Positions 5,136 to 50,245 of a DNA stretch of 64,000 bases are shown here, in pieces (position 1 is the stretch's first letter; every line of letters begins with the position of its first letter). The position numbers and the translations under genes are program-made. The notes under the pieces are model-generated. The model saw nothing but the letters and a program-made list of their open reading frames with translations, made no database searches and was not told the origin of the DNA. Source of the DNA: Carcharhinus amblyrhynchos (taxonomy: Eukaryota); NCBI GenBank assembly GCA_965287045.1, contig OZ336874.1, positions 17,112,001 through 17,176,000 on the forward strand, read 5' to 3'.

Positions 5136-6172
5136 TGTAACTTTGTTGCCTTAGAGGCTGCAGAGGAGAATGCATCAGGGAACATTACTGAAGAGTAAAT
5201 ACTTTACAGTCCTCTCTACCTCTAGAAACACTGGCGAACACTCATCCATTCAGCCTCTCATTTGCAATCAGGAGCATGGAGACATTCATTAGTGGGGGTA
5301 ACACTTTTGCTGAGAGATTAAAACATGATCAGAGTATGCACAAGCAAGAGGATGGAGGCTGATGCCAGTTGAGTGGGGTTCAGATATGTCAATCCCCACA
5401 TGCAAGGCTAGTGCTTGATGATCTGACAGCCCCTGCTCTGTAGAGAAAGAAGCAAGCAGAGCAAAAGACATATTAATTATCTGCATGGTATCTTCCAATG
5501 TGCAGGACAGGTGAATGCACTGGCAGTGGTGTACATTGCTCTGCAGAGGGTTTCAACGTATTGCAGGGCTGTCTGGAGAAAGTGAAAGCTATGAGAGCAC
5601 TGCCAATCCTTTCCCTTGCGAGAGGTCAAAACGGGTCAGTCAATTGAATTAAGAAGCAGCCGATGAGGACCAATCACTTGCAAGACGCACAGGGCTGCTT
5701 CTCGAACAGGCATTTCTGATGTGGTGAGGTCCACTCTCCCACTGATCACTGCTAATCAGAATCCTGTTCCCCAGGCTTATGGAGAAGTTGGAGCCCATGC
5801 CTCACAGGCTGCTTCCTGCCAGAAAAGCACAGCAAAACATCCCACCGGGTTCCTACAGGAGACTCCTTCTTCACAGAAGCAGGCTGCCAAGAACCATGTA
5901 GTGAAGTGTCCTATTTCCATTTTAGGACTTGGGAACTCAGTGAAAGGCACCTCCAACCCAAAAGCCTAACTGTATTTTCTATGGGAATAGTGCTGAATTG
6001 TATACATTGTAAGGTGGCTGATGTGCCAAAAGCTCCCTGTAGTTCCTAGAAGAAATGTAAGTTTGAGCATTATGGTTACCTCCTCCACTACCGCCACTGC
6101 ATCCCCCACCCCTCCTCACACCCACCGCCTTGCCTCCTTTAACCCCCACCAACACAGCCTCCAAACTCAAAA

Positions 6173-7287
6173 CTTCTGCACAAAATGCAGATGTATGGGA
6201 TTGGGGGTGATCTAGGGAACTGGATTAGGAATTGGCTAGCGGATAGGAGACAGAGGGTAGTGGTTGACGGTAAATATTCATCATGGAGTTCGGTTACAAG
6301 TGGTGTGCCTCAGGGATCTGTGTTGGGGCCACTGCTGTTTGTGATTTTTATTAATGATCTGGATGAGGGTATAGTTGGGTGGATCAGTAAATTTGCTGAT
6401 GACACCAAAGTCGGAGGTGTGGTAGATAGTGAGGAAGGGTGTCATAGTTTGCAGGAAGACTTAGACAGGTTGCAGAGCTGGGCCGAGAGGTGGCGGATGG
6501 AGTTTAATGCAGAGAAATGTGAGGTAATTCACTTTGGTAGGAATAACAGATGTGTTGAGTGTAGGGCTAACGGGAAGACTTTGAATAGTGTGGAGGAGCA
6601 GAGGGATCTAGGTGTATGTGTACATAGATCCCTGAAAGTTGGGAATCAAGTAGATAAGGTTGTTAAGAAGGCATACAGTGTCTTGGCGTTTATTGGTAGG
6701 GGAATTGAATTTAGGAGTCGTAGCGTTATGTTGCAACTGTACACAACTCTGGTGTGGCCGCACTTGGAGTATTGTGTGCAGTTCTGGTCCCCACATTACA
6801 GGAAGGATGAGGAGGCTTTGGAGAGGGTGCAGAGGAGGTTTACCAGGATGTTGCCTGGTATGGAGGGGAGATCCTATGAGGAGAGGCTGAGGGATTTGGG
6901 GTTGTTTTCGCTGGAAAGAAGGCGGCTAAGAGGGGATCTTATTGAAACATATAAGATGATTAGAGGTTTAGATAGGGTGGATAGTGATAGCCTTTTTCCT
7001 CTGATGGAAAAATCTAGCACGAGGGGGCATGGCTTTAAACTAAGGGGGGGTAGTTATAGGACAGATGTCAGGGGTAGGTTCTTTACCCAGAGGGTGGTGA
7101 GGGATTGGAATGCCCTGCCTGCTGCAGTTGTAAATGCGCCTAGTTTGGGGGCGTTTAAGAGGTCTGTGGATAGGTTTATGGACGAAAAGGGATTGGTTTA
7201 GGTTAGTGGGTCATTGTTTTTTTTTAACTGGTCGACGCAACATCGTGGGCCAAAGGGCCTGTTCTGCGCTGTAATGTTCTATGTTCT
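6173..7287 (+). mobile_element. Young 5'-truncated CR1 LINE with an open C-terminal RT frame (6185-7201)
   Basis: GVPQGSVLGP, KFADD, HLEYCVQFWSP, ERRRLRGDL; short 3' UTR ending (ATGTTCT)2; possible 4-bp TSD/microhomology CTTC. Confidence 0.93.
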
Positions 7288-35822: not shown

Positions 35823-36673
35823 TTCTATTTGTCCATCGGAAGTCATGTTTTTCTTCCCAGGTATGTGACATTTACCACATGCCGTATCACAAGTGACTTC
35901 TGTGTATCCCAAATGTTAATTTTCTGAAACAAACCTACCGAATTTTCATTTGAACCACCAAGCCTTTTCAATGTTAATAGCAATGGAAGAAATGACAAGT
36001 TTAGTGACAGACTAAGCTATCACAGCTTGTCAAAATCATAAAATAAACAGAAACGTCCTCAAAATGAAACCTGCAAACTCCATGGTGCTTGGTGTCAAAA
36101 GAACAGCAATGGAATGATTCTTCCAGCATATAATGAAGAATGGCAAGTGGGAGCATGTCATCCACCCAAGCTCCTTCCAATTACTGCAGTACAGCTATCA
36201 ATGGAAGTGTATGGCAAACACTCCTTGTTTGTGGGGAAAAATCAACATGTTATTATGGTGTCTGGCAATATTTATGTCCTTATAATACCAGGGACTTGAA
36301 TATGTGCATGTCTGATACCTTACTGTCATCGTAAACATAAATATAATTGTTATCCTTCTGATTTGATATTAACCTTTTGGAAACAGCAATGACTTTTAAA
36401 ATATACTGTGCATTAACTTCCATTCTCTTCCACTTCCAAAGGATACATAAACACTGGAATTAATCACTCCACTAAATAGTAAAGAGGTGGTTCAGGCAAA
36501 CTGTTTGAAAATGATACATTGCAGCAAAAAACCTAAGAGTTTTAAAGTAAAAGTGGTAAAACAAAACTTCCACTCTGAAAGTCAATTGGTGTGGCATGCA
36601 ACCCATTGTTTAGACAAATTCAATGAGGCCACAGCTCCTCAACTGCAGCACCTTTGTTGAAGGTAACGCCTAC

Positions 36674-36828
36674 CTGCAATGTACAACCATTGGCCCAGCG
36701 TCTGGAGGGTTACAGGCTTTGACTCGCCGCAAGAAGGCCAAGAATGGTGTTGGGTGCTCTGGAACCCCATGATCAGGCCACGCTGTGAACTGGAATTGTC
36801 GTACTTCCCTCTTTTCGCTGGAGCCAAT
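36674..36828 (-). CDS. PTPRD: PTPRD D1 exon (WPD loop to catalytic VHC)
   Basis: ctcacag|ATT...TGC AG|gtaggc; 155 nt; [51 protein letters not shown](S); PEHPTPF points to PTPRD rather than PTPRS/PTPRF (from memory). Confidence 0.96.
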
Positions 36829-37184
36829 CTGTGAGAACAATGGGATTTTATCAACAAAATGATGGGAGTGTTTATAATAATTAAAAAAGAAAGGAGCTTT
36901 ATTTTGGGCATGTTTCCCACACTGACAGACATCATAATTTTCTGGCGCCTCTAATTTGTAGATCAAATTACACAGCTTGTTGTCTTAATGAATGCAATAT
37001 AGGTTTGCCCTCTAGGTCTTTAGTGCCTCAAATCCAATCTAAACAGAGGAAGTGCGGATAGTTGAGCTGTAGATGTCAGGCTGCAGTAATGTACTTGTTC
37101 CTAATAAACTATTTTGAGTCTGTGAGCATGGGAAATTAGAAAGGGAATAATTAGGAAAAAAAATTCAGCAGCCACAAATTATCA

Positions 37185-37546: not shown

Positions 37547-38302
37547 AAATTATGTGTGCATGTGTGAGAGACACAGGACATCTCCCTCACATGGTTCATA
37601 TTTGGCTTAGACAGAAAAGTCTTTTCTTACATATTGCCTTCAACAAAGCAGTTATGACATTTCATGAGAACAAATGCACTCTGCCTGACTATCAAGGATC
37701 TCCATAAGAAGAATTAGGGTTTAAACCCTTACTTAAGCCTCACCAAGGGCAAGATTGGAGTCACAGGTCCAGGATTGCTGACTAGCAGAAAAGACAACAA
37801 ATCTAAGATGGTGCACTTATATGAAGTGTATTATGGCTGCTGAATAGTGAGGCTCAAGGTCACTTTGCTGGTGAACACACTCCACCCACACTTGTTGGTG
37901 AAGTACAGCCAGTTACCATGAAATGGCAGTCATGGGTGGGGTGAGTGCCAGAGGTGCTGTGAAGGAAGAGATCCTTTCCTTAAACTGTAACAAACTTTTA
38001 ATCTAAATCTGAAGGAGAAACCCACCATGGCAACAGATACCTATTCTCACCCCTATTAGGGGAAGGTCATTATTTTTGTGATTACAGTAGTACAATGCTG
38101 CTGGGTGGGATTTTGAGCCTGTATCCTCCACAAGCATAAATGGTGATGCCGGTGCAAAATTCCACTGGAGTCGGCAAGTGAGATTTCATTTACAGATTGT
38201 TTCCCATCCCCTTGTCAGTGACGTTCTCACGGAGGCCAGGAACCTCATTTAAATACATTTTATCATTACTAACGGGCCTCCCTGCCACATCTCCCGAAAG
38301 CC

Positions 38303-39127
38303 CACATATGCGGGAAATGTCTAGAGGTGCAGAGATTAAGGGCCCGGGTGAGGCAGCTGGAACTGAGGCTGGAGGATATGTTTTTAGTTAGGGAAAATGA
38401 GGAAATAATGGATAGGGACAGTAACACTGAGCAGATACCAGGACCTAGGAGGAGAGATGGATGGGTTACAGTTAGGAAGAGCGAAAAGAAAAGGAGTCAT
38501 GGCACTAGGACCGCCCCAGAGGAATTACCCCGGAATATCAAGGGTGGGGTGACAGCTGGGGTAGAGAAGGCAAGGGAGGGAGATCAGAATACCTCGGAGG
38601 AAGGGAAGAGTGCAGGGTGTGAGATAGTGGTGGGGGATGGGAGAGTCAAAGGGATTGACAGGCGGTTCTGTGGGCAAAAGCGGGACTCCAGGATGGTAGT
38701 TTGCCTCCCTGGAGCAGGGGTACAGGATGTTTCAGAAAGGGTAGAGGGAATTTTGAAGGATGGAGGGACTGAGTCTGATGTGATAGTGCACGTAGGAGAG
38801 AAGGATGTAGGAACAAAGTGCAGGGGGGACATACGTAGGCAGTTCAGGGAGTTGGGGGCTAGGCTGAAATGTAGGGCCTCCAGGGTGGCGTTCTCTGGGC
38901 TGCTGCCAGTGCCTGGGGCTAGCAGGGCTAGAAATAATGAGATACTCCAACTAAATGCGTGGTTGAAGGATTGGTGTAGGGCAGAGGGTTTTAGATTCGT
39001 AGACCACTGGGAAGTCTTTATGAAAGAGGGGCAAATATACAAGAGGGATGGGGTACAGTTAACTGGGAAGGGCGTGCATATCTTAGCTGGAAGGTTAGCT
39101 GGAGTGTTTCGGCAGGGTTTAAACTAA
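38303..39127 (+). CDS. CR1 ORF1 (5'-truncated): half zinc finger, coiled coil, SGNH-esterase-like domain
   Basis: HICGKCLEVQRLRARVRQLELRLE..., IVVGDG, VVCLPGA, VIVHVGEKD, DGVQL, ends ...FRQGLN*. Confidence 0.88.
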   Translation, partial: HICGKCLEVQRLRARVRQLELRLEDMFLVRENEEIMDRDSNTEQIPGPRRRDGWVTVRKSEKKRSHGTRTAPEELPRNIKGGVTAGVEKAREGDQNTSEEGKSAGCEIVVGDGRVKGIDRRFCGQKRDSRMVVCLPGAGVQDVSERVEGILKDGGTESDVIVHVGEKDVGTKCRGDIRRQFRELGARLKCRASRVAFSGLLPVPGASRARNNEILQLNAWLKDWCRAEGFRFVDHWEVFMKEGQIYKRDGVQLTGKGVHILAGRLAGVFRQGLN

Positions 39128-42011
39128 TATGGAGGGGGGGTGGGGAGGTGGACGGAACTGGGATTGGGGATAGGGTAAGCCCGGAGGGTAGGAAGAAGGA
39201 TCGGATTGTTTCTGAGGGTCTTCGGTGCATGTGTTTCAATGCTAGGAGTGTGACTGGCAAAACAGATGAACTGAAGGCAATAATGTTCGAAAGGAAGTTG
39301 GAAGTGGTGGCGGTGACAGAGACTTGGTTAAAGGAAGGGCAGGACTGGCAGTTGAATGTTTCCGGGTATAAGTGCTTCAGGCGTGATAGGGGTGGGTCGC
39401 TGAGAGGTGGGGGAGTGGCGTTGTTAGTTAAGGATTGTATCATAGCAGTGCAGAGGGAGGGAGGTATGAGGATATAGGAATCGAGTCGCTTTGGGTGGAG
39501 TTGAGGAATAGGAAGGGAGATGTTACTATGTTGGGTGTGTACTACAGACCGCCCAACAGCCCGAGGGCTGTGGAAGAAGGGATAAGCAGGGACATTCTAG
39601 AGAAGTGCAGGAAGTATAGGGTGGTGGTAGTGGGAGATTTTAATCTCCCCGGGGTAGATTGGAAGGTGCCGAGATCAGAGGGTGCTGACGGGGAGGAATT
39701 TGTACAGTGTGTAATGGAAGGATCCCTGGAGCAGTATGTGGATAGCCCGACCAGAGAGGGGGCTATACTGGACTTGGTTCTGGGGAATGAGCCTGGGCAG
39801 GTGGTTGACGTTGAAGTAGGAGAGCATGTGGCTAACAGTGACCACAACTCTGTCTGGTTTAAGATATTAATGGATAAAGATGAAGCCTGTCCTAAGGGGA
39901 GGGTGTTAAACTGGGGGAGGGCTAGATACAACCGGATTAGGCAGGATCTTAAAGATACGGACTGGGGTAAGCTGTTTGATGGCAGGTCGACGCTGGGTAT
40001 GTGGGACTCTCTCAAGGGAAAACTAAAATCTTTGCAGGAAAGACATGTGCCGGTCAAGAGGAAGGATGGGAAGGGTAGGATTAGAGAGCCGTGGGTAACT
40101 AGGGATATTGAGGTCCTGGTCAGGAGGAAGAGGGAGGCGTACATTAGATCTAGGCATTTGAGGACAGAGATAGCGTTAGAAGAATACAGAGAATGTAGGA
40201 GAGAACTTAAAAGGGGCATCAGAAAGGCAAAAAGGGGCCACGAAATGGCTTTGGCGGGTAGGATTAAAGAAAATCCTAAGGCATTTTACTCCTATGTTAG
40301 AAATAAAAGGATGGTTAGAGGGAAGATTGGTCCTCTCAGGGACAGAGGAGGGGAACTATGCTTGGAGCCTGGGGGAATGGGGGAGATCCTGAATGAATAC
40401 TTTGCGTCGGTATTCACGCAGGAGAGGGGCCTGATGTCTGGTGCTGTGCTTGAGGAGTTTGAGGATCCGTTGAGGGAAATAGTCATCACGAGGGAAGAGG
40501 TGTTGGGACTTTTAGACAGTGTAAAGACGGATAAATCTCCGGGGCCTGATGGCATCTATCCCAGGCTGCTAAGGGAGGTGAGGGATGAAATTGCTGGGCC
40601 TCTGACGCAAATCTTTGTCTCTTCTTTGGACACAGGTGAGGTCCCAGAGGATTGGCGGATTGCAAATGTAGTACCGTTGTTTAAAAAGGGTCAGAGGGAT
40701 AACCCAGGGAATTATAGGCTGGTGAGCTTGACTTCAGTTATAGGCAAGCTAATGGAGAGGATCCTCAAGGATAGGATGTATGAACATCTGGAGCGCTGCA
40801 ATCTGATCAGGGATACGCAGCATGGCTTCGTTACAGGGAGGTTGTGCCTTATGAATCTAGTGGAATTTTTTGAAGAGGTGACAAAAACGGTTGACGAAGG
40901 ACAAGCCGTTGATGTCGTCTATATGGATTTCAGTAAGGCGTTTGACAAGGTCCCTCGTGGTAGGCTGATAGAAAAGGTGAAGGCTCATGGGATACAAGGC
41001 CAGGTATGTAGATGGGTGGAGAACTGGCTTGGGAGGAGGAGACAGCGGGTAGTAGTGGAAGGCTCCTTTTCCAATTGGAGGTCTGTCACCAGTGGTGTGC
41101 CGCAGGGCTCGGTACTAGGACCTCTTCTATTTGTGGTATATATTAATGACCTGGAAGAGGGGGTAGGTGGTGTGATCAGCAAATTTGCTGATGACACTAA
41201 GATGGTTGGATTGGCGGGTACTGAGGAGCAGTGCCTGGCAATGCAACAGGACATAGACAGGCTGGTAGATTGGGCAGATAGATGGCAAATGGAATTCAAT
41301 CCGGAGAAATGCGAGGTGATGCACTTTGGCCGGAATAATGTGGAGGGGAGTTATACGATAAAAGGTAGAACTATCCGGAGTACAGATACGCAGAGAGACC
41401 TGGGGGTGCAAGTGCACAAGTCCCTGAAGGTGTCGGTGCAGGTGCAGAATGTGATGAGGAAAGCGTATGGTATGTTAGCCTTTATAGGAAGAGGTATAGA
41501 ATATAAGAGTAGGAGTCTGATGTTGCAGTTGTATAGAACGTTGGTTAGGCCTCACTTGGAGTACTGCGTCCAGTTCTGGTTGCCGTACTACCGGAAGGAT
41601 GTAGAGATCCTGGAGAGAGTGCAGAGGAGGTTTACCAGGATGCTGCCTGGTATGGAAGGGCTGTCTTACGAGGAAAGATTGAACGAACTTGGGCTGTTTT
41701 CCCTTGAGAGACGTCGGCTGAGGAGGGATCTAATAGAGGTTTATAAGATTATGAAGGGGATAGATAGAGTAAATGGTGGTAAGCTTTTTCTGCTATTAGA
41801 AATGGATAGAACGAGGGGTCACAGGCTTAGGGTGAGGGGGGCTAGGTATAAGACAAATATTAGAGGGCAGTTTTTCACGCAAAGGGTAGTGGGGGTGTGG
41901 AATGCACTGCCGAGTAAGGTGGTGGAAGCAGGCACGCTAGGGTTGTTTAAGAGTCACTTAGACAGCCACATGAGCGGGCTACATATAGGGGGATATAGCT
42001 GGCCTTACTAA
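39118..42011 (+). pseudogene. CR1 ORF2 (APE endonuclease + reverse transcriptase) with one 1-nt frameshift near 39460
   Basis: FNARS, VTETW, YYRPP, GDFN, LDLVL, SDHN (APE); KSPGPDG, DFSKAFD, GVPQGSVLGP, FADD (RT); split between the 39148..39477 and 39435..42011 frames. Confidence 0.92.
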
Positions 42012-42839
42012 ACATTGTAGGCTTGGGATTACGTTTTTGCCTCAGGGATGTTACAGTCTTTGCCTGTTTAATAATGAATTTTTTGTCTCCACAGGCATTT
42101 AAGTCCAGCAAGGGGCATGCATGCGGCAGGTTGTGGTGGGCTGCTCTTGGACGTTGCTTCGGGAGTTGCCTATTGCTTCATGTCGTTAGTGTGCTTAAAC
42201 TGGACCATCTCGAGGGCAACATGACAGCTCAGAGACTATCTCTGTCGCTGTGCGGACACATGGATTTGGGCCTGTGTCTGTGGGAGTTTGCACGTTCTCC
42301 CCGTGGTTGCGTGGGTTTCCTCCGGGTACTCCGGTTTCCTCCCACATCCCAAAGATGTGCTTTTAGGCTGATTGATTGGGTACTAAATTGTCCCTATATT
42401 GGACCTCCCTGATTAGGCGTAGACTAAAATCATGAATAGGTCACTGAGACAGTGGGACGGCGGCGCGGGCTCGTTGGGCCGAAGGGCCTGTTTCCCATGC
42501 TGTGTTGTTCTTTGTTCTTTGTTTTTTATGATCTCCCCTCCCTGAATATTCAGATCTTGTTAAAGGGATGTCAGGTTGGTGAGGATTACAACAGTTTAAT
42601 AAGAACAGGGACTGACTTTTATGTCTCATCATAGAGGGATTGGGGCTAGAAATTGTGGTGAGCCATTCAAAAGTCCATTAACTTTGATGGGAGTGGAAAG
42701 TCCCTCCAGTGGAAGATTCCTATGCATTTTGGGACACTAAAGCCAGAATTTTTTGATTGTTTACGACAGTAGGATTTTCCCATCCTGCTGCAGTGAACAT
42801 GGATTTGGTTTGGGGTAAGATCACACCCTATGCATCATT

Positions 42840-49145: not shown

Positions 49146-50245
49146 ACACAAACATAGAACAGTACAGCACAGTACTCGATGTTGTTCCGAGCTACGTCCC
49201 AACCCTAGATCAAGCTATCCCACTCCCCACTGTTCTGGTGTGTTCCATGTGCCTATCCAGTAACTGCTTAAAAGTTCCTAAAGTGTCTGACTCCATTATC
49301 ACAGCAGGCAATGCATCCCAATCACTCTTTGCGTAAAGAATCTACCTCGGACACCCCTCCTTTATCTCCCACCATGAACGTTATAGTTATGCCCCCTAAT
49401 AACAGCTACATCCACCCAAGGAAATAGTCTCTGCACATCCATTCTATCTATCCCCCTCATCATCTTATAAACCTCTATTAAGTCACCTCTCATCCTCCTC
49501 TGCTCTGAAGAGAAAAGCCCCAGCTCCCTCAACCTTTCCTCATAAGACCTACCTTCCAAACCAGGCAGCATACTGGTAAATCTCCTCTGCACTCTCTCTA
49601 ATGCTTCCTTCTTCTTGTGAGGCGACCAGAGCTGCACACAATATTCCAAGTGTGGTCTCACCAAGGTCCTGTACAGCTGCAGCATAATCCCACAAATCTT
49701 AAACTCAAACCCCCTGTTAATAAACGCTAACACACTATAAGTCTTCTTCATGGCTCTATCCACTTGAGTGGCAACCTTCAGAGATCTGTGGATATGAACC
49801 CCAAGATCTCCCTGTTCCTCCACATTCCTCAAGACCCTGCTGTTGACCCTGTAATCTGCATTCAAGCTTGTCTTAACAAAATGAATCACCTTGCACTCAT
49901 CAAGGTTAAACTCCATCTGCTACCTTTCGGCCCAGCTCTGCATCCTATCAATGTCTCTTTGCAGTCTACAAGGGCCCTCCACCTCAACCACTACTCCACC
50001 AATCTTGGTGTCATCAGCAAATTTACTAACCCACTATTCAGCCTCCTCTTTCAAGTCATTGATAAAAATCACAAATAGTAGAGGCCACAGCACTAATCCC
50101 TGTGGTACAATGCTGGTAACTGGCCTCCAGTCTGAAAATTTTCCCTCCACCCACCCTCTGTCATCTAATGAGACAGCCAGTTATTTATCCAATCAGCCAA
50201 ATTTCCTTCCATCCCACACCTCCTTACTTTCTTCATGAGCCTGCC
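49146..50245 (-). mobile_element. 5'-truncated CR1 LINE inserted into an older CR1
   Basis: ORF 49362..49916 (RPHLEYCVQLWSP, RRMRGDL); tail TGTTCTATG; candidate TSD ATTTC at 49141-49145 and 50246-50250. Confidence 0.88.

Follow-up and report, generated by a model that had tools for sequence, protein, structure and literature searches.

A conserved slippery heptamer at the end of ORF1 and probable programmed −1 frameshifting into ORF2 in CR1 LINEs

How ORF2 is translated in LINEs with two open reading frames has been called an open and important question (PMC3894237), and it arises anew with a CR1-type element whose ORF2 lies in the −1 frame relative to ORF1. The element was found in the window, by which we mean the whole 64,000-nucleotide stretch of Carcharhinus amblyrhynchos DNA analysed here (contig OZ336874.1). 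CR1-group elements dominate the retrotransposons of most vertebrates and make up 22-34% of shark and ray genomes, according to PMC13343379. A clade-wide frameshift, if true, would settle the route of ORF2 translation for CR1; the active CR1 protein would then be an ORF1-ORF2 fusion, so that ORF2 annotations starting at the first Met would be wrong. It would also carry further the comparison of the esterase ORF1 with Gag (PMC3905857), and the frameshift stimulator involved might be of a new kind. The features concerned are as follows.

38286..42525, + strand: CR1-type LINE copy, young and 5'-truncated; edges from comparison with mates
38286..39127, + strand: ORF1, with zinc finger (partly lost here), coiled coil and SGNH esterase domain; ends Gly-Leu-Asn-stop
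39115..39121, + strand: overlapping heptamer G_GGU_UUA, in the window family; not kept between families
39118..39124, + strand: U_UUA_AAC, the slippery heptamer (ORF1 phase) at which the −1 shift is predicted
39125..39127, + strand: ORF1 stop TAA, directly 3' of U_UUA_AAC
39118..42011, + strand: ORF2, in the −1 frame with respect to ORF1, with APE endonuclease and reverse transcriptase; interrupted near 39470
39124..39228, + strand: linker from shift site to endonuclease, open and free of AUG in the −1 frame
39131..39145, + strand: GG-N2-G5-N2-G3, a conserved G-rich motif that may act as stimulator or bind a protein
39160..39175, + strand: three further G tracts, window family only; may supply the rest of a G-quadruplex that has one 14-nt loop

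Comparison with longer copies placed the 5' edge of the element at 38286, and comparison with mates placed its 3' edge at 42513-42529 (8/8 mates). The esterase ORF1 and the APE-RT ORF2 are followed by a 3' UTR of ~510 nt and a (GTTCTTT)n tail, also present in 8/8 mates, so that the element ends in short tandem repeats and not in poly(A). The family is young, with 40 copies scored at 99% or above. ORF1, which is 302 aa long in full-length copies, matched Lipase_GDSL_2 (PF13472) in the window copy with an E-value of 5.5e-6, under the curated cut-off, and a profile of ORF1 relatives matched the ZfL2-1 ORF1 esterase structure 4c1b (E 6e-33). Two features expected of an esterase-ORF1 CR1 LINE were found, namely an SGNH esterase ORF1 and an ORF2 that runs from APE endonuclease to reverse transcriptase; the element appears to belong to CR1 by likeness, in that the junctions of its sister families resemble entries labelled LINE/CR1. 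The window copy itself is dead because of a private one-base frameshift near 39470 in ORF2, which was missing from 4/4 family mates compared, but its junction is still that of the family.

The initial annotation had placed two overlapping heptamers in the correct phase at the end of ORF1, and the coordinates bear this out: ORF1 closes with CAG GGT TTA AAC TAA (39113-39127), in which G_GGU_UUA and U_UUA_AAC are both in ORF1 phase. The −1 frame beyond ORF1 is indeed the endonuclease frame of ORF2, as had been read from the sequence; it has no stop from 38995 to 39477 and matched Pfam Exo_endo_phos (PF03372) with an E-value of 1.6e-5. The earliest in-frame AUG of this frame lies at 39229, three codons 5' of the NARS Asn. 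A start at this AUG would retain the Asn, an observation that we counted against the −1 frameshift reading. Another AUG, at 39129, is out of frame and opens a 14-codon ORF. The G tracts of the window copy are GG at 39131-32, which begins 6 nt past the heptamer, G7 at 39134-40, G4 at 39142-45, G3 at 39160-62, G4 at 39166-69 and G3 at 39173-75.

An indel in the G7 run could have produced the offset, a possibility raised beforehand as grounds for refutation. Genome-wide, exact junction matches numbered 235 with G7, six with G8, one with G6 and none with G5, and the reversed control patterns gave no match. The −1 offset is thus kept by 235 of the 242 exact matches of the young family, and no G7 indel lies behind it. 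The same G7 counts rule out an artefact of the assembly or of a single copy, and a G6 subfamily using the AUG at 39129 was ruled out as well (1/242 assembly copies). The junction was present in 30/30 best-scoring copies, which were chosen by similarity. A G run one base shorter accounted for ~19% and ~17% of contig depth in two large runs; it would bring the AUG at 39129 into frame, and we counted it against the −1 frameshift reading.

Conservation of the heptamer was followed through 16 families whose endonucleases share as little as 50% identity. In 16/16 families the codon ahead of Leu ends in T, whichever residue (G, A, D, T or R) it encodes; the Leu codon is TTA in 15/16 and the Asn codon AAC in 16/16. 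TTTAAAC is therefore conserved at the nucleotide level, as the proposal had demanded, with three synonymous positions fixed while the stop codon, the preceding residue and the linker length vary. Elsewhere in 13 families the third base was invariant in only 1 of 31 endonuclease columns and 0 of 40 ORF1-tail columns, and fourfold-degenerate sites are only 46% identical between families. Leu and Asn residues conserved a few codons upstream of the heptamer use several codons, and in ORF2 12% of Leu codons are TTA and 29% of Asn codons are AAC. The tandem slippery site did not hold up as a general feature: the codon preceding Leu is GGT in 10/16 families and GCT, GAT, ACT or CGT in the other six, which have lost G_GGU_UUA, and the base before that codon varies. 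Other families end ORF1 with TAA, TAG or TGA, and the −1 frame always reads CTA or CTG (Leu). The families share ancestry, so their counts are not independent events. Among 66 loci with an ORF1 tail that were picked by endonuclease, the junction not being consulted, 62 carried the exact TTTAAAC plus stop and three more had one mismatch; the phase of these 65 was −1 in 50 and out of phase in 15.

The distance from stop to NARS Asn ranges from 110 to 194 nt in the in-phase cases, every one of which keeps the −1 offset, mostly without stops; the offset is thus as constant as had been predicted. In two complete ORF2 frames (959 and 962 codons) the first Met stands at codons 174 and 55, respectively, and the NARS Asn at codons 44 and 40, so that the first AUG comes 130 and 15 codons after the Asn. 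A conserved in-frame AUG before the endonuclease, which would have spoken against frameshifting, is accordingly missing. Of 13 families with an open linker, six have an in-frame linker Met, at differing places, six reach the endonuclease with no Met, and in a seventh 6/8 open copies have none. The linker Met in 6/13 families and the 15/65 out-of-phase loci were counted against the −1 frameshift reading. A SART1-like TAATG overlap in the ORF2 frame was seen in 1/16 families; the window family has TAATA.

Frameshifting of the −1 type is usually weak without a stimulator. The downstream G tract that had been suggested for this role is conserved across families as G5-N2-G3, ~10 nt downstream of the heptamer, and its spacing suits a 3' stimulator (5-9 nt), but the G-quadruplex as a general stimulator is not borne out: the strict three-tier pattern occurred in 3 of the 16 families, the loose one in five and the two-tier one in 10, and six families have too few tracts. 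The window family has no strict three-tier G-quadruplex within 60 nt, three tiers requiring a 14-nt loop. The G tract nevertheless had the top G4Hunter score over ~1.2 kb of element in 7/16 families, the window family included, and the background fraction of these maxima was 0.001 or less. No conserved stem-loop was found (z-scores −1.8 to +1.6, 19 sequences), nor a conserved pseudoknot partner; the best duplexes of the G tract with long-range partners fell at unrelated places in 12 loci, and an Rfam search gave no match to E 1. The absence of a conserved fold or Rfam match was entered as a point against the −1 frameshift reading.

More distant relatives came from a metagenome set of 35 loci, in which 17 junctions were read (L181 and L182 included) and 18 weak matches left out; seven of the 17 were LINE-like with a readable ORF1 end. 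L183, whose endonuclease is 35% identical, has G_GGA_AAC followed by TAG, and L188 has U_UUA_AAC followed by TAA, each with the −1 frame open into the endonuclease; G_GGA_AAC is also present in L185. No signal was seen in L189 (endonuclease 41% identical, +1 offset), L186 (ATGA overlap) or L213 (same frame), and L187 has an imperfect heptamer, G_UUA_AAC; we counted these four against the −1 frameshift reading. The endonuclease tree has no resolution at its base, so the order of heptamer change cannot be read from it. Many CR1 ORF1s had been said to end in LN, and 85 of 134 ORF1-like proteins do so; nine end in QGN. The 49 without an LN end were likewise counted against the −1 frameshift reading. 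A residue with no T-ending codon (K, Q, E, M or W) precedes LN in 1/85, as against 33/85 and 22/85 at the next two positions. ORF1 proteins under snake and turtle names end in RALN. In the part of the PMC13343379 supplement available, inspected by eye, 18 of the 23 TTTAAAC-plus-stop matches listed sit at the ORF1 end of published consensuses, and the entries come from shark, ray, chimaera, bowfin, coelacanth, frog, lizard and crocodilian. The CR1 junction was absent from the viral contigs, GTDB and phage collections searched.

The same heptamer in nearly all lineages examined, together with a −1 ORF2 that has no conserved start codon, argues that ORF2 of these CR1 LINEs is probably made by programmed −1 frameshifting at U_UUA_AAC, as an ORF1-ORF2 fusion. 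In such a mechanism tRNA-Leu and tRNA-Asn would slip together from UUA AAC to UUU AAA, and the ribosome would then read CUA and a linker of 35-60 residues into the endonuclease. Most ribosomes would terminate to give the 302-aa ORF1p and a minority would produce a fusion of ~1,260 aa, with QGLNLIWR as the predicted junction peptide. The stimulator is the least certain step. One candidate is the stop next to the heptamer and the other is G5-N2-G3, and stimulation may come from a bound protein or a weak G-quadruplex, or there may be mere low-level slippage at an intrinsically shifty site. As far as sequence comparison can tell, the clade-wide programmed fusion first proposed has thus come through, shorn of its tandem site and of its general G-quadruplex.

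One could envisage that there is no recoding signal at all, a protein constraint on the C-terminal Leu-Asn and shared ancestry having kept the letters and the offset being an accident of copy or assembly. The families are related, the G run is unstable and 15/65 loci are out of phase; however, G7 stands in 235/242 exact matches, the three synonymous heptamer sites are fixed where fourfold-degenerate sites are 46% identical, and several codons serve the conserved Leu and Asn just upstream. This explanation is scarcely credible, its appeal to constraint and ancestry being already contradicted by the family codon comparison and the third-base columns. Nucleotide-level conservation by itself names no mechanism, and ORF2 might instead start within the linker, at an AUG or near-cognate codon reached by internal entry or on a shorter or spliced RNA, with TTTAAAC and the G tract serving as a signal in DNA or RNA, for example as a TATA-like internal promoter or a processing site. 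TTTAAA is similar to a TATA variant, as GGGGTGGGG is to a GT box, and 6/13 families do have a linker Met. We consider a linker start very unlikely: in six of the 13 families the endonuclease is preceded by no Met, and in a seventh 6/8 open copies lack one too; the position of the Met differs from family to family, the heptamer keeps strictly to the codon phase of ORF1 and the whole linker to the −1 frame, and G_GGA_AAC does not make a TATA box. In four runs contigs span the junction gap-free, with GT..AG ends at 0/4 joints listed, although this evidence against splicing is weak because the RNA status of the runs was only guessed.

Termination-reinitiation, largely AUG-independent as in mammalian L1, would resume translation at the codon overlapping the stop or at the next one, now in the −1 frame, and yield ORF2 as a separate protein; the heptamer and G motif would serve as reinitiation signals. 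It is the accepted route for L1 and SART1 (PMC2881922; PMC5009743), it too calls for a linker that is open and in phase, TAATG occurs in the ORF2 frame of one family, and the stop always adjoins the heptamer. Yet the codon following CTA/CTG differs between families (ATA, ATT, ATG, GTT, GTA, GAA, GAT or ACT), and reinitiation offers no reason for the X_XXY_YYZ form 5' of the stop or for the swap to G_GGA_AAC in L183; we hold it to be improbable. Within the −1 frameshift reading, the special case of a tandem site with a G-quadruplex as main stimulator across the clade seems rather doubtful. The G4Hunter maxima in 7/16 families, the window family among them, favor it, as does the 6-nt spacing of the GG, given that a G-quadruplex 5-8 nt behind UUUAAAC gave up to ~7% shifting in vitro (PMC3919603). 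On the other hand, G-quadruplex-driven shifting drops with longer loops and fewer quartets (PMC3919603), the strict three-tier pattern is confined to 3/16 families and six have too few tracts, and the 5' heptamer G_GGU_UUA is not conserved.

Returning to −1 frameshifting at U_UUA_AAC, we tentatively put forward a wider scheme. For several hundred million years esterase-ORF1 CR1 elements, from invertebrate-type lineages to sharks, amphibians and reptiles, may have relied on −1 frameshifting to make their polymerase as an ORF1-ORF2 fusion resembling Gag-Pol. Stimulation would come from the adjacent stop and from G5-N2-G3 as read by a protein (a host G-tract binder or ORF1p), with no RNA fold involved, and through the fusion the polymerase would be tethered at a fixed ratio into a membrane-binding ORF1 particle.

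The initial annotation had named only reinitiation or coupling, for the best-studied LINEs (L1, SART1), which leaves out Dictyostelium TRE5-A and TRE3-A, where, according to a review, a −1 frameshift is needed to translate ORF2 (PMC5911963). These are APE-type non-LTR elements with a −1 ORF2, as is the window CR1, but differ from it in clade, host and ORF1. U_UUA_AAC and G_GGA_AAC are among the shiftiest heptamers for mammalian ribosomes according to PMC5009743. CR1 shares heptamer class and phase with retroviral gag-pol and coronavirus 1a/1b (IBV, U_UUA_AAC), which likewise have an upstream structural or RNA-packaging ORF and a polymerase in the −1 frame. Unlike those sites, the CR1 junction revealed no stem-loop or pseudoknot and its stop adjoins the heptamer, and the fusion would likely stay uncleaved because no protease domain was detected. 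PMC5009743 also describes a short unstructured motif 11 nt behind the PRRSV shift site, bound by nsp1beta and PCBP, and a nearby stop of any kind required for shifting in pea enation mosaic virus (PEMV). CR1 resembles both, by analogy only, in having a short motif ~10 nt behind the heptamer and tolerating any stop; its motif is G-rich whereas the arterivirus (PRRSV) motif is C-rich, and protein binding in CR1 is hypothetical. The canonical vertebrate esterase-ORF1 CR1 (type IV; CR1_7 of Metcalfe and Casane; PMC13343379) has the same zinc finger, coiled coil and SGNH ORF1, APE-RT ORF2 and short tandem-repeat 3' tail as the window element, and published LINE/CR1 entries match the CR1 junctions. 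The portions of the canonical-CR1 literature examined do not describe the junction signal or a route of ORF2 translation, and no report of −1 frameshifting in CR1 was found in the literature searched, which did not extend to the original CR1 papers. With L1 and SART1, CR1 would share a bicistronic LINE RNA and a low ORF2 output dependent on ORF1 translation (PMC2881922, PMC3894237); in L1 and SART1, however, ORF2 starts at an AUG that lies at the stop or beyond it and is made as a free protein, whereas in CR1 it is the slippery heptamer, and not an AUG, that is conserved.

ORF1 of the window LINE ends CAG GGT TTA AAC TAA (39113-39127), as the initial annotation had read it, and the -1 frame is open from 38995, across the junction and into the endonuclease domain. 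The element and its neighbors in the window are as follows.

~38286-42525, + strand: CR1 LINE copy, 5'-truncated, 3' end (GTTCTTT)n
36670-36984, - strand: exon resembling a receptor-type protein tyrosine phosphatase catalytic domain
6143-7250 and 49362-49919: two more CR1 reverse transcriptase fragments, of other families, 5'-truncated

The window copy carries a private one-base frameshift near 39470, and its family is very young, since 40 scored copies are at least 99% identical over the junction. The junction was present in all 30 fetched copies, and in 15 of the 30 the -1 frame stayed open to the locus end (594 codons). Exact genome-wide counts of the G-run length (G7, 235 copies; G8, 6; G6, 1; G5, 0) established that the -1 offset belongs to the family and does not stem from an indel of one copy, an eventuality raised in the initial annotation. 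Contigs from sequencing runs spanned the junction without a gap; in two large runs part of the depth carried shorter G runs, which probably represent other families or species because the assembly has one such copy. The host genome is 2.9 Gb, and records of its ORF1 relatives bear ray and shark names. The LINE lies antisense to the phosphatase-like exon, which we take to be of the LAR group, and is probably located in an intron. Its family's 3' UTR (42012-42525) measures about 510 nt, while that of the sister family L235 is far shorter (<100 nt). A mid-UTR piece (~42260-42370), common to all mates of the family, has 78-89% matches in several short repeats dispersed over the rest of the window, and a SINE-like segment seems to be built into this LINE. 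The same UTR also has a tract resembling a splice acceptor near 42078-42095.

The heptamer U_UUA_AAC is kept at the nucleotide level and not merely as Leu-Asn. Clustering by linker sequence, from an input that included motif-selected loci, gave 16 families, whose counts are not independent trials because the families share ancestry. Endonuclease identity to the window family was 50-82% in the 11 families compared, and fourfold-degenerate sites were 46% identical between families. The codon before Leu nevertheless has T as its third base in 16/16 families, be the residue Gly, Ala, Asp, Thr or Arg; TTA encodes Leu in 15/16 (the exception is one decayed copy) and AAC encodes Asn in 16/16, compared with an invariant third base in 1 of 71 other columns (13 families). 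TTA makes up 12% of Leu and AAC 29% of Asn codons in ORF2. Four different codons serve for the conserved Leu that lies 12 codons upstream, and a conserved Asn is mostly AAT. The ORF1 stop varies among TAA, TAG and TGA.

Selection on the motif was to be avoided, and loci were therefore also chosen by an upstream ORF1 pattern (1,777 matches) and an endonuclease-start pattern (13,087 matches), taking the places listed first for contig C1: 53 further endonuclease-start places and 7 ORF1-pattern places picked for variety. An ORF1 tail was detectable in 66 of 83 endonuclease-anchored loci; TTTAAAC plus stop was exact in 62 of these, had one mismatch in 3 and was missing in 1. The 65 loci with the heptamer and stop were in -1 phase in 50 cases and out of phase in 15, many of the latter with visibly altered G runs. 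The heptamer was still present in 6 of the 17 loci lacking an ORF1-tail match. A second count of 85 rows (101 less 5 duplicates and 11 rows with the ORF1 stop elsewhere than expected) gave 74 exact matches; in 5 rows the heptamer was present but the frame of ORF1 had slipped, and 6 had mismatches. The searched genome (G000) has 100 of its exact endonuclease-start matches within the first 5.3 Mb of the largest contig; its stock of near-full-length CR1 copies is unusually large and comes from many coexisting families.

The initial annotation stated that many CR1 ORF1s end in LN. Among 134 distinct ORF1-like proteins whose last conserved motif lies within 60 residues of the end (8 longer ones were left out), LN is the terminus of 85 and QGN of 9, and the remaining 40 end differently. 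A residue without a T-ending codon stands directly before LN in 1 of the 85, and one and two places earlier in 33 and 22; positions further up are also low (3 to 9 of 85), so this test is supporting only. Rays, a sawshark, a snake and turtles are among the named LN-ending members. In metagenome DNA, L188 has U_UUA_AAC TAA and L187 G_UUA_AAC TAG, both in -1 phase; L183 reads CAG GGA AAC TAG, that is G_GGA_AAC, with the -1 frame open into the endonuclease and a G tract behind, and L185 has G_GGA_AAC TAC TAG at a contig end. Counter-examples are L189 (+1 offset, stop without heptamer), L186 (ATGA overlap) and L213, a distant SGNH-ORF1 LINE with the endonuclease in the ORF1 frame behind TGA CTA (1326-1334). 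TGA CTA is a known readthrough context, and L213 may possibly use stop-codon readthrough in place of frameshifting. In the accessible part of the PMC13343379 supplement, 18 of 23 TTTAAAC-plus-stop matches, selected by motif and judged by eye without a frame check, lie at ORF1 ends, most with a G tract next; the abbreviated entry names suggest alligator, crocodile, bearded dragon, bullfrog, coelacanth, bowfin, elephant shark, catshark, dogfish, sawfish and stingray, together with a bony fish whose entry is labelled Crack.

Additional slippery heptamers (U_UUU_UUC, A_AAA_AAC and G_GGU_UUU) could underlie the FFH, FFR, SKN and LGF ends of other distant ORF1s (P0119, P0147, P0154, P0155 and P0066). 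Esterase ORF1s with YLN ends at ~30% identity (P0054-P0070, P0058) include one fused into a tubeworm-named record, and the esterase ORF1 of CR1 may not be vertebrate-only, contrary to a statement in PMC4120745. P0026, recorded as an SGNH hydrolase of Pseudomonas aeruginosa, is a CR1 ORF1 of shark type and likely reflects host contamination of that record.

The junction is real and conserved. Tandem slippage from UUA AAC to UUU AAA would make CUA the codon read next, and a minority of ribosomes would produce an ORF1-ORF2 fusion of ~1,260 aa with the junction ...QGLNLIWRGGG...; for a LINE, ORF1 molecules must be many and ORF2 molecules few (PMC3894237, in the text available). Judged from the window family by itself, ORF2 could start at AUG 39229, because a start there keeps the first conserved endonuclease Asn (NARS). 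Across families no AUG before the endonuclease is conserved. The stop-to-Asn distance is 110-194 nt in in-phase copies, and the linker is open in 13 families: no Met precedes the endonuclease in 6 of them, nor in 6 of the 8 open copies of a seventh, and the other 6 have a linker Met at varying places, one as a TAATG overlap. The complete ORF2 frame of L235 (959 codons) has the NARS Asn at codon 44 and its first Met at codon 174, adjoining a GDFN motif whose aligned counterpart in the L1 endonuclease falls around residue 145; in L221 (962 codons) the Asn is codon 40 and the first Met codon 55. The NARS Asn aligns weakly with Asn7 of exonuclease III, presumably an active-site residue. AUG-independent reinitiation, as in L1, could also make ORF2, yet it leaves the form of the heptamer and its exchange unexplained, and we regard it as improbable. 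Programmed -1 frameshifting at the heptamer is, from these sequence comparisons, the most likely explanation of ORF2 expression, and we hold it with considerable confidence. One family (L048, L059, L062, L084, L085) combines the heptamer with a TAATG stop-start overlap in the ORF2 frame; it could use both routes and offers a natural test case.

Behind the heptamer, counting the first base of the ORF1 stop as +1, G occupies +12 and +18 in 16/16 family representatives and +8, +11, +13 and +19 in 15/16; conservation stops past +20. The fifth codon of the -1 frame is GGG in 15/16 families versus 40% of ORF2 Gly codons. The G run is kept although it is a likely site of phase loss in copies, which suggests selection at the RNA level. 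In 7 of 16 families G4Hunter ranks the tract first among windows, but just 3 families show a strict three-tier quadruplex pattern; 5 show a loose one and 10 a two-tier one. A G-quadruplex is therefore unlikely to be the general stimulator that had been proposed. Quadruplexes behind UUUAAAC stimulate shifting, more weakly with long loops (PMC3919603, in the passages available), so one may contribute in families rich in G, that of the window included. The junction sequences searched contained no conserved hairpin, long-range partner for the G motif or Rfam family match.

No report of frameshifting for CR1 was found in the available text of the literature searched, and an earlier remark in the founding CR1 papers or Repbase notes is quite possible. 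The accessible text of a frameshifting review (PMC5009743) names HeT-A, TART and L1 among non-LTR elements and CR1 0 times; the parts consulted of PMC13343379, PMC2734521, PMC4120745, PMC3905857, PMC3708506, PMC2881922 and PMC4255032 do not mention CR1 frameshifting. A legend in PMC5911963 states -1 frameshifting for Dictyostelium TRE5-A and TRE3-A. The CR1 ORF1-ORF2 junction would thus place a known mechanism in a setting for which we found no report. Its candidate stimulator is unlike the usual kinds. The nearest analogies, from the text of PMC5009743 available, are PRRSV, where a protein-bound motif lies near the shift site, as the short motif here lies ~10 nt behind the heptamer, and pea enation mosaic virus, whose freely chosen stop resembles the tolerance of any ORF1 stop.
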